From a virus, in the UHGV virus genome UHGV-0210818: 36,538 nucleotides of DNA; one strand, 5' to 3'. A program made the position numbers and the translations under genes. The notes below the pieces were generated by a model. The model saw nothing but the letters and a program-made list of their open reading frames with translations, did not search any database and had not been told where the DNA came from. Shown in pieces: positions 10,049 to 29,555 of the stretch; position 1 is the stretch's first letter; each line of letters begins with the position of its first letter.

Positions 10049-10279
10049 ATGCCTAAAGACACACTTTGCTGGTCATGCAGCAAGTCGTTTAAAGACCACG
10101 GCTGCTGCTTCTTCGACAGTTTCACGCCTGTGCCGGGCTGGGTGGCTGAGCCTAAGGTAAGACATGACTGCGGCAAGGAGTACACTTGCTATACGGTCGT
10201 TGCATGCCCGCTTTACGAAAAGTGGGATAGAGAGGTTTTACATAAGCAGGAGGAGGAAATCAACGATGATTTCGGATGA
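10049..10279 (+). CDS. Small Cys-rich hypothetical protein
   Basis: TLCWSC..C..PVPGW..Y.V..CP; AGGAGGTG RBS before ATG 10049. Confidence 0.75.
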   Translation: MPKDTLCWSCSKSFKDHGCCFFDSFTPVPGWVAEPKVRHDCGKEYTCYTVVACPLYEKWDREVLHKQEEEINDDFG

Positions 10280-10673
10280 CATCAAGCGGCTTAAAAGGCT
10301 TAAGCGCAACCTGATCCCCGAAAAGCAGGAAGACTGCGCCCGCTTTCTGAGACTTGCGGAAGGCGGTGCGATATCTTACGACAGGGTCGGCAGTTCGGGG
10401 AGCGATGAAAACAGGCAGGCACAGAAAAACGATGAATATGTCGCAGCGTGTGAAGAGCTTGAAGAGCTTAAAGCCGAGTGCACGGCTCTGGTGTATCATC
10501 TTACAGCTGAGATTAACAGCGTGTTTGCAGATGATGACGAAAAAAGGCGCATCGCAAAGCTGCACTATGTGGACGGCGTTACGCTTAACGCTATCGCAAG
10601 CAAGCATATGCACTATTCATACGGGTGCGTTAAAAATAAAAATGCAGAAATCGCAGCGTATTTAAATCTGTGA
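10266..10673 (+). CDS. ArpU/RinA-like late transcription activator
   Basis: AISYD...GS, R.I..LHYVDG.TLNAIA..MHYSY (sigma-r4-like HTH); last gene before terS. Confidence 0.8.
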   Translation: MISDDIKRLKRLKRNLIPEKQEDCARFLRLAEGGAISYDRVGSSGSDENRQAQKNDEYVAACEELEELKAECTALVYHLTAEINSVFADDDEKRRIAKLHYVDGVTLNAIASKHMHYSYGCVKNKNAEIAAYLNL

Positions 10674-10740
10674 CCTAAAATGACTTAAAATGACCTAATT
10701 GTACCGAGCGAAATATTACATCATATGATATGATTATACT
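10671..10740 (+). promoter_or_regulatory. Late promoter: three 10-bp direct repeats plus extended -10
   Basis: TGACCTAAAA TGACTTAAAA TGACCTAATT (10671-10700); TGaTATGAT (10726-10734); no consensus -35. Confidence 0.7.
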
Positions 10741-10862
10741 AGCGAAGATTGAATAGGAACACCGCCGACGGGTTTTCTTTTTCCATAAATTCTCCTCCCT
10801 GTCGGCTGTTCCGCTTCGCTTTCGATTGATTTTCAGCGTCCTGACAGGGGCGCTTTTCTTTT
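10741..10862 (+). ncRNA. Putative structured small RNA or late leader with anti-SD loop and terminator
   Basis: Nested helices AGCGAAG/CTTCGCT, GGAACA/TGTTCC, GCCGACGGG/CCTGTCGGC; terminator AGCGTCC..GGGCGCT+TTTCTTTT at 10835-10862. Confidence 0.6.
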
Positions 10863-10889: not shown

Positions 10890-11318
10890 GTGAATGATAA
10901 AAATCTGATCCCGAATTCGGAGCGAACTCCCGAAGAGCTCCGAGAGATAACACGCAAGGGCGGCAAGGCTTCGGGCGAGGCGAGACGCCGAAAGCGTGAT
11001 ATGAAGCAGAAGATGAAGGCTCTGCTTGAACTGCCTGCTGCTGCGAATGACCAAGAACAGCTTGAAGCTCTCGGCGTGGATCCTGCCGATAGAGATAACG
11101 AGATGGTGCTTGTTATGGCGATGTTTTTAAATGCGGCTCAGGGCGACACTAAGGCGTTTGATCGGGTAATGCAGATACTCGGCAAGGACATCGGGCATGA
11201 GGAGCTTGCACTTAAAAAGCAGGAGCTTAAGTGCAGGCAAAAGGCTGCGTCCGAGGAGGATAATGCGGCGATTTCCAAGCTTGACGAGGTGCTTGGCAAG
11301 ATCGAGGGGGGCTTCTGA
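10890..11318 (+). CDS. terS: Terminase small subunit
   Basis: NLIP..ERTPEE.REI.RKGGKASGEARRRKR N-terminus; directly upstream of terL. Confidence 0.8.
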   Translation: MNDKNLIPNSERTPEELREITRKGGKASGEARRRKRDMKQKMKALLELPAAANDQEQLEALGVDPADRDNEMVLVMAMFLNAAQGDTKAFDRVMQILGKDIGHEELALKKQELKCRQKAASEEDNAAISKLDEVLGKIEGGF

Positions 11319-28701: not shown

Positions 28702-28822
28702 GTTTTATGCTTACCGCATCATCTGCGGTAAGACTACAATTGCAAAGGTGCCTAAAAAGCTCAGAGAAGATGTGAAAACTGTACTGACTGAGCTGGGTTA
28801 TCCCAAGCTGGCGGAGGAGTGA
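28694..28822 (+). CDS. 42-aa CD1375/XkdX-like protein (not in the ORF track)
   Basis: MAEFYAYRIICGKTTIAKVPKKLREDVKTVLTELGYPKLAEE; GGAGGTG RBS. Confidence 0.8.
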   Translation: MAEFYAYRIICGKTTIAKVPKKLREDVKTVLTELGYPKLAEE

Positions 28823-28826
28823 TTTT

Positions 28827-29555
28827 ATGGAGATAACAAAAATGCTGCTGGATATCAATCCATACAGCAGACCTCACATCATGAGGGATAAGACTACCAA
28901 GGTTGCTGTGCATTATGTCGGCAATCCTGGAACATCTGCCCTGGCTAACCGTAACTACTTTAATAATCTCGCTAAAAATCACAGCCGATATGTATCATCT
29001 AACTACATCATCGGCATTGCTGGCGAGGTCATCGAGTGCGTGCCGCCTGATGAGATAGCTTACTGCACCAATCAGGCAAACGCATACAGCGTCAGCATTG
29101 AGTGCTGTCACCCTGACGAGACGGGCAAGTTTACGGATGCGACGGAAACGAGCCTTGCGGAACTGTGTGTGTACCTGCTTGAACGCTATCATCTGACGGC
29201 TGATGACATCATCAGGCACTATGATGTGACTGGCAAGCAGTGTCCGCTGTACTGGTCGCCGACTAAATATCAGCCCGCCGAGGTCGCTAACGCAAGGTTT
29301 AGGGCATTTAAAAAACGTGTGCGCCGCATGATGGGCGGCAAGCCTGCCAGCGGTGAGTTTAAGGTGCGTGTCATTGACGATGCGCTTAATATCCGCAAGG
29401 CTCCGGGGACAAGCTCTGAGGTGGTCGGAGTCATCAGGGGCGGCGGGGTGTACACTATCGTCAGTACTCAGACAGTCGGCTCGGTCAGATGGGGACGGCT
29501 TAAATCGGGTGCGGGGTGGATAAGCCTCGGAAGCAAGTATGTCAAGGAGGTGTAA
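28827..29555 (+). CDS. Endolysin: Amidase_2 plus SH3b-like cell-wall-binding domain
   Basis: VHYVGN, SSNYIIG, SIECCH, RHYDVTGK.CP; LNIRK.PG...WGRLKSGAGWI. Confidence 0.92.
   Translation: MEITKMLLDINPYSRPHIMRDKTTKVAVHYVGNPGTSALANRNYFNNLAKNHSRYVSSNYIIGIAGEVIECVPPDEIAYCTNQANAYSVSIECCHPDETGKFTDATETSLAELCVYLLERYHLTADDIIRHYDVTGKQCPLYWSPTKYQPAEVANARFRAFKKRVRRMMGGKPASGEFKVRVIDDALNIRKAPGTSSEVVGVIRGGGVYTIVSTQTVGSVRWGRLKSGAGWISLGSKYVKEV

Follow-up and report, generated by a model that had tools for sequence, protein, structure and literature searches.

A structured late-leader RNA with a variable anti-Shine-Dalgarno loop in temperate gut phages, a candidate silencer of cargo genes

A hairpin RNA between activator and terminase genes

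The locus raises the question of which translation start is addressed by a phage RNA that displays the complement of one in an open loop. The window, that is the whole stretch of 36,538 nucleotides that was analysed (UHGV-0210818), is a tailed temperate phage that encodes an integrase, a repressor and replication, packaging, tail and lysis functions. Genome G127 represents the host species, identified by 30 CRISPR spacer matches to the window in a type I-C array (27–39 nt, 8 identical). The array has about 216 repeats, and none of the 30 matches lies within 10741–10862. A type II cas cluster (cas9-like, cas1, cas2 and csn2-like, by eye) adjoins the type I-C cluster (G127:C1:199068-227725, L248-L250).

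The hairpin RNA is located between an ArpU/Ltr-like late transcription activator gene (10266..10673, + strand, 135 aa) and the small terminase subunit gene terS (10890..11318, + strand), which was assigned by its position before terL and by phrog_2412. The activator has a weak match to the phrog_36 transcriptional regulator (E 2e-5) and no Pfam match, and precedes terS as in PMC3753634. Three 8-bp direct repeats with 10-bp spacing were seen at 10671..10698 (+ strand) and are the predicted activator binding site. According to the available text of PMC3753634, Ltr binds to repeats directly 3' of the activator gene. The predicted late promoter (10726..10740, + strand) comprises an extended -10 (TG-A-TATGAT), then a second -10-like hexamer (TATACT), and has a poor -35; relatives share this layout. 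Repeats and an extended -10 without a good -35 are the arrangement of activator-dependent late promoters in the accessible parts of PMC3753634 and PMC3152322. The predicted transcription start at 10741 fits the extended -10 at 10726–10734, which was located by eye; the sigma-70 scan needs a -35, and this element is absent from its list. In contigs from one gut sample, the likeness of a related third phage to the window begins at 10740, behind a different promoter. The RNA thus moves as one piece, beginning at the predicted +1.

The leader scaffold (10741..10820, + strand) has a basal helix (10741–10747/10814–10820), an 8-nt bulge on the 5' side and two further helices (10756–10761/10807–10812 and 10764–10772/10798–10806). 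They enclose a pyrimidine-rich loop of 25 nt (10773..10797, + strand), the variable part of the RNA. This loop is complementary to a Shine-Dalgarno sequence (SD), a spacer, an AUG and 11 coding bases; its reverse complement reads as SD, 5 nt, ATG and 11 nt. The folding energy is -41.8 kcal/mol on the + strand (z -3.76; 0/200 shuffles fold equally well) vs. -34.8 on the - strand, and the loop is 87% unpaired on average in the folding computation. An intrinsic-terminator-like hairpin with a U tract follows (10835..10862, stem 10835–10854, + strand). It is the predicted 3' end of a 122-nt RNA, and its distance to terS is only 27 nt. Two G-U pairs in the hairpin favour the + strand. The original prediction of a three-helix hairpin, an exposed loop complementary to a translation initiation region and a terminator was recovered in each of these elements.

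The Infernal search that had been proposed for a known phage motif returned no family. In Rfam 15, 0 families reached the gathering threshold in the window, the best loose match being anti-hemB (13 bits vs. 49.5, E 2), and no family matched the scaffold in 19 related loci. The int-alpA model (RF02996) left the window and related loci unmatched at gathering score and was above the cut-off in 0/5 records. A blastn search of GenBank phages gave no match, exact-pattern scans for a scaffold of this type gave 5 viral matches, all unrelated, and a metagenome scan yielded mostly noise and copies of one known subfamily among the matches listed. No account of the hairpin family was found in titles and abstract openings of the literature; the supplements of Weinberg 2017 and PMC10690425 could contain the motif. 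The late-leader RNA is real and, apparently, undescribed so far.

Related gut phages share the basal helix, the A-rich bulge on the 5' side and the upper helix, placed behind a promoter of the same type, with differing activator and terS genes on either side. In the covariation analysis of 13 sequences, 97.6% of cells could pair, with 20 double changes, on a consensus structure taken from the same alignment; 0/500 shuffles reached this, and every slid control was lower. The proposal of a non-coding RNA at the predicted late-promoter +1 is supported by this conservation and covariation. There are 22 distinct scaffold copies; the covariance model misses shorter scaffolds and scores one cargo-bearing family (family A, below) at 18–20 bits. 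The basal helix and the A-rich bulge, which start at the predicted +1, are the most conserved parts.

The loop varies. The host itself carries the closest copy in a prophage (L177, 88% identical to the window); the loop of this copy has 16 nt, all pyrimidine, with anti-SD and without anti-AUG. The differences between the third phage's contigs and the window yield the same 16-nt loop, and the 25-nt version was seen only in this window. The anti-SD part of the predicted anti-SD and anti-start loop is therefore kept in the two closest copies, and the anti-AUG part is absent from both. In the L177:1480 region on the minus strand, terS has a strong SD and lacks ATG, GTG and TTG at the appropriate spacing, and ATC may be its start codon. 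Since the anti-SD loop is missing in 13/22 scaffolds and many relatives lack the scaffold altogether, the scaffold is dispensable. Relatives without it have the same promoter-terminator-terS layout.

Loop and cargo Shine-Dalgarno sequences in related phages

Many relatives have a cargo gene between the late promoter and terS. The original prediction had sought the target of the loop elsewhere and overlooked the ribosome binding site (RBS) of this directly downstream cargo, which matches the loop. In cargo-bearing relatives with the scaffold, the cargo is located 165–195 nt downstream, and its SD is complementary to the loop in two independent families. In family A (L004, L015, L022 and L017), the loop ACCUCACG matches CGUGAGGU exactly over 8–9 nt, which 2–9 of 834 background starts reach. 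The same leader and SD precede three unrelated cargos. In family B, the loop CCCCCUAA and the cargo UUAGGGGG match over 8–9 nt in L350, L259 and L211 (0–4/834 background starts) and over 6 nt in L347 and L349 (46–57/834). Swapping loop and SD across both families leaves a match of 3 nt. All seven scaffolds with cargo directly behind (7/7) have an anti-SD loop vs. 2/15 others, namely the window and L177. L008 has kept the family A loop, and its cargo start matches only 5 nt; in L266, the anti-start stretch and the ORF that follows do not match. At the level of families, the sequences make a good case for cargo silencing, though it comprises two independent families only and the match was noticed post hoc.

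The position of the cargo promoter was defined in L004. The leader (871–930) is followed by a near-consensus promoter (978–1006, TTGACA-17-TATTAT) and by the cargo start at 1039; no + strand terminator was called between leader and cargo promoter. On the read-through transcript, this SD of the cargo is to some extent paired already (unpaired probability 0.29). The cargo promoter of family B was seen by eye only and was not called by the promoter scan. In L335, a stretch complementary to the cargo SD lies about 170–250 nt 3' of the activator gene, past the terminator and immediately 5' of the cargo -35; therefore, only read-through transcripts would carry it.

PADLOC models match 3/11 cargo proteins, two TIR-like effectors and one PDC-S42; two of the cargo types look like defence proteins. 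A fourth protein has a weak and probably spurious match to Cmr5. The late slots of L015 (240-1935), L225, L199 and L350 share a two-gene cargo that encodes a 220–360-aa protein and a membrane protein. It belongs to no Pfam or PADLOC family and is a candidate defence system.

We give an even chance to a function of the structured late-leader RNA in which the apical loop acts as an anti-RBS and blocks translation of the relatives' cargo between leader and terS. By analogy with Ltr/ArpU biology, the activator would bind the repeats, and transcription would begin at 10741 late in the lytic cycle. As the covariation shows, the first 80 nt are a conserved scaffold that keeps the variable loop open, and in cargo-bearing relatives the loop would pair with the complementary cargo SD. 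The lysogenic cargo mRNA, starting at the promoter behind the leader, would be free of the loop and translated. On the strong late mRNA that reads through, the loop would be present and the cargo muted while the polymerase proceeds to terS.

The window has no cargo, and its leader abuts the terminator, which some transcripts must read through to reach terS. The loop may be the imprint of a lost cargo that started with SD-ATG-GAA-AAA-GAA. Alternatively, the RNA could be released as a 122-nt species and target, in trans, a start of this kind in another prophage. No cargo with this start was found: the one match among 401 family genomes is a chromosomal-looking 64-aa gene, and none of the viral matches to the predicted start (3 + 1) is at a late promoter. 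More tentatively, and with clearly less confidence than in the silencing of cargo in cis, the fixed late-leader scaffold of temperate phages of gut Bacillota may be a re-targetable antisense cassette. Its loop would be rewritten for the RBS of each defence cargo, providing an RNA-based self-immunity, and cargo-less copies would act in trans on the cargo of rival prophages.

Targets in trans and a survey of late leaders

The endolysin start (28813..28831, + strand) had been named as the best match in the window and as a possible sRNA target. The early gene at 1400 is a better partner, with duplex energies of -21.9 vs. -19.7, and of -26.0 vs. -24.1 with a 27-nt loop. The product of this gene (1400-2461, phrog_1733) has at its N terminus a domain resembling the alpha-CTD of RNA polymerase (PF03118, E 4e-9). 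Among the 63 starts in the window, these two rank highest, as expected for an sRNA acting in trans on an own gene and timing lysis or early shut-off. A ParA/Soj-like early gene ranks first and fourth as partner of the leader anti-start stretch in 2/10 other phages (L379 and L380; G408 and G416). The energies themselves are at chance level. When the SD and AUG complements were fixed, the remaining loop was shuffled and the best in-window energy was scored (n=200), -26.0 was reached by 26/200 shuffles, and the endolysin value lay at the mean (-23.8 ± 1.9); 29/76 decoy anti-starts also reached -26.0. No in-phage target class of anti-start stretches was shared across 9 + 10 phage regions, and in the L177 prophage, loop and gene-1400 homologue match by only about 6 nt (by eye). 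The endolysin and gene 1400 were rejected as targets, and regulation of an own gene in trans is improbable. The adjacent terS was also rejected, with a duplex of only -5.3 kcal/mol.

RsaE, RoxS and RNAIII are C-rich anti-SD sRNAs of Bacillota, and their unpaired C-rich loops pair with SD sequences. The window RNA could act in this way on a host mRNA or as a broad blocker of ribosome sites. Its loop is open and the unit is terminated discretely. Moreover, a 31-nt query pairs well (about -29) with mgtE-like starts of two further genomes from the group; no such start was found in the host. A host gene starting with M-E-K-E, the other target put forward originally, was not found in the spacer-matched genome G127 either. 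This genome contained no match with ≤3 mismatches and none to the SD and start-proximal bases. Wobble patterns gave 3 matches vs. 4 in the reversed control. The best duplex was -23.9 among 300 starts, covering 426 kb of 2.6 Mb in an assembly that may be incomplete, and no host target was found in four congeners of G127. The duplex scoring that had been recommended thus placed the best phage partner at chance and found no host target. A host target is about as improbable as an own gene. A reading as RNA anti-CRISPR was rejected after host cas gene starts and the I-C repeat gave no convincing match by eye.

Late leaders behind ArpU-like genes were surveyed in 130 regions (68 of 193 genome matches, 52 viral loci, 3 GenBank records and 7 earlier loci). 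Of these, 97/130 contained both a promoter motif and a gene downstream, which left 68 after redundancy was removed; the window was merged with L177 in this step and is not among them. The search pattern was CAT, 3–13 nt and an anti-SD core, the spacing having been widened from 3–11 after a first look. This combination of anti-SD and anti-AUG was present in 18/68 late leaders vs. 2.6 ± 1.5 in 500 dinucleotide shuffles (maximum 9), a sevenfold excess. Other co-oriented gaps had it in 9/121 phage regions (p 8e-4) and 1/68 host regions (p 2e-5). The anti-start stretches are mostly located directly 5' of a hairpin. Single-stranded anti-SD and anti-AUG sequences 5' of the hairpin were observed in the unrelated phages L263, L266, L267, L268, L270, L281, L369, L374, L379, L380, L384, L385, L390 and L394. 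This excess, with roughly one in four of the late leaders carrying such a stretch, suggests that Bacillota phages have a class of riboregulators not described so far.

An anti-start motif can also be read as a start on the opposite strand. In the window, the loop would then mark where a minus-strand gene starts or once started, either a 15-aa peptide or the stump of a deleted reverse cargo. The 15-codon ORF (10739..10786, - strand) reads MEKENPSAVFLFNLR and has a perfect SD, a suitable spacing and A-rich first codons. Genuine minus-strand genes are present in the slot of some phages; L275 has a real one of 65 aa. The peptide had been offered as the alternative in the original prediction, and the closest copies argue against it: the start codon is missing from L177 and from the contigs of the third phage. 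The ORFs opened by 19 anti-start motifs are unrelated by eye, and 16/19 have only 3–33 aa. Among the 18 leaders, one anti-start is that of a real minus-strand gene of 65 aa and two more open ORFs >50 aa. No minus-strand promoter was called from the loop to 11415, and the start is part of a conserved hairpin whose + strand folds more stably. The ORF is an unlikely gene, and a minus-strand origin of the loop is very improbable. A type I toxin-antitoxin system or small minus-strand peptide was rejected as well, as no opposite ORF is conserved: the start codon is absent in the closest copies and ORFs elsewhere are unrelated.

The survey also revealed features of transcription. In 55/68 leaders, a hairpin resembling a terminator is located before the first late gene, 34 of them on the reverse strand. 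A second -10-like hexamer follows the promoter in 51/68, by a permissive pattern with no null model. The tandem -10-like hexamers of the window (10726–10740), L004, L011, L020, L211 and others are reminiscent of the lambda pR' pause and tR'. Terminator-like hairpins are located before late genes, in the window only 27 nt from terS, and late expression therefore seems to need read-through. ArpU-like regulators may also act in antitermination; 'antitermin' has 0 occurrences in the available text of the two Ltr papers (PMC3753634, PMC3152322).

These features would fit a leader with structural functions only, such as 5'-end protection of the late transcript, or pausing and terminator read-through, and a loop that has no current target. 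The strong conservation of basal helix and A-rich bulge from +1 onwards and the scaffolds that lack an anti-SD loop are consistent with it. Such a leader leaves the family-specific match of loop and cargo unexplained, and also the excess of anti-SD and anti-AUG, and relatives manage the same promoter-terminator-terS layout without the scaffold. A structural leader alone is rather unlikely, though less so than a target in trans in phage or host.

Relation to known systems

Silencing of cargo by the late leader was compared with known phage regulators. StxS and the lambda pR'-tR' short transcript are likewise short RNAs of temperate phages between a late promoter, here a predicted one, and a nearby intrinsic terminator (PMC7547250, in its available text). 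StxS represses stx1B at the stx1B RBS, that is, late-region cargo at its RBS (PMC7547250); here, the corresponding complementarity is found in families A and B, and the window has no cargo. StxS is described in the same text with a constitutive promoter under Q antitermination, RNase E cleavage, Hfq binding and rpoS activation. The window RNA differs from StxS by an activator-dependent-looking promoter, a Bacillota host, a seed in the apical loop and a loop that changes with the SD of the cargo slot. The poor -35 and the Ltr-type repeats point to activation, and the terminator before terS points to read-through. The protein encoded upstream had no Q-family match, and no sequence likeness of the window RNA to StxS was found (no Rfam match).

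Leader hairpins of the T4 genes e, soc, 49 and I-TevI have an anti-SD arm only on the long transcript, so that the start site sets translation (PMC3014915, accessible part). An anti-SD arm 5' of the gene's own promoter is present in the relative L004 and not in the window. In T4, local hairpins mute late genes on early transcripts (PMC3014915). The logic of a window-type leader would be reversed: the cargo would be muted on the late transcript, by a partner loop 165–195 nt upstream and without a local SD hairpin.

RliG (RF02415) of Listeria A118-like prophages occupies the same slot, directly behind the ArpU-family activator and before an accessory gene (PMC7397523). According to the available text of this source, RliG is expressed in lysogeny, dispensable and of unknown function; unlike the window RNA, it has about 270–370 nt. 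The RF02415 model, run against the window and 20 loci, matches the A118 locus only and neither the window nor the other 19. In phage A118 (L402:1155-1526), RliG is located between the ArpU-family activator and gp68 and has a 6-nt complement to the gp68 SD, by eye. The anti-start excess in late leaders suggests a candidate function for orphan RNAs of this slot such as RliG.

How prophages maintain defence genes inside their strongest operon without harm to their own lytic cycle is an active question. The solved cases are mainly inhibitor proteins, as far as described in the accessible text of PMC11087260 and bioRxiv 10.1101/2025.02.27.640495. Tha/Ith (PMC11087260) and TerI/anti-TerI (bioRxiv 10.1101/2025.02.27.640495) resemble the proposed silencing in that prophage defence cargo is off during the phage's own lytic cycle. 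Unlike the proposed leader loop pairing with an SD, they use inhibitor proteins and antisense transcription. By the tests run, the window RNA is outside the StxS, T4, RliG, Ith and anti-TerI families. If the loop tracks the cargo RBS, it would be an RNA solution valid for any gene inserted in the slot.
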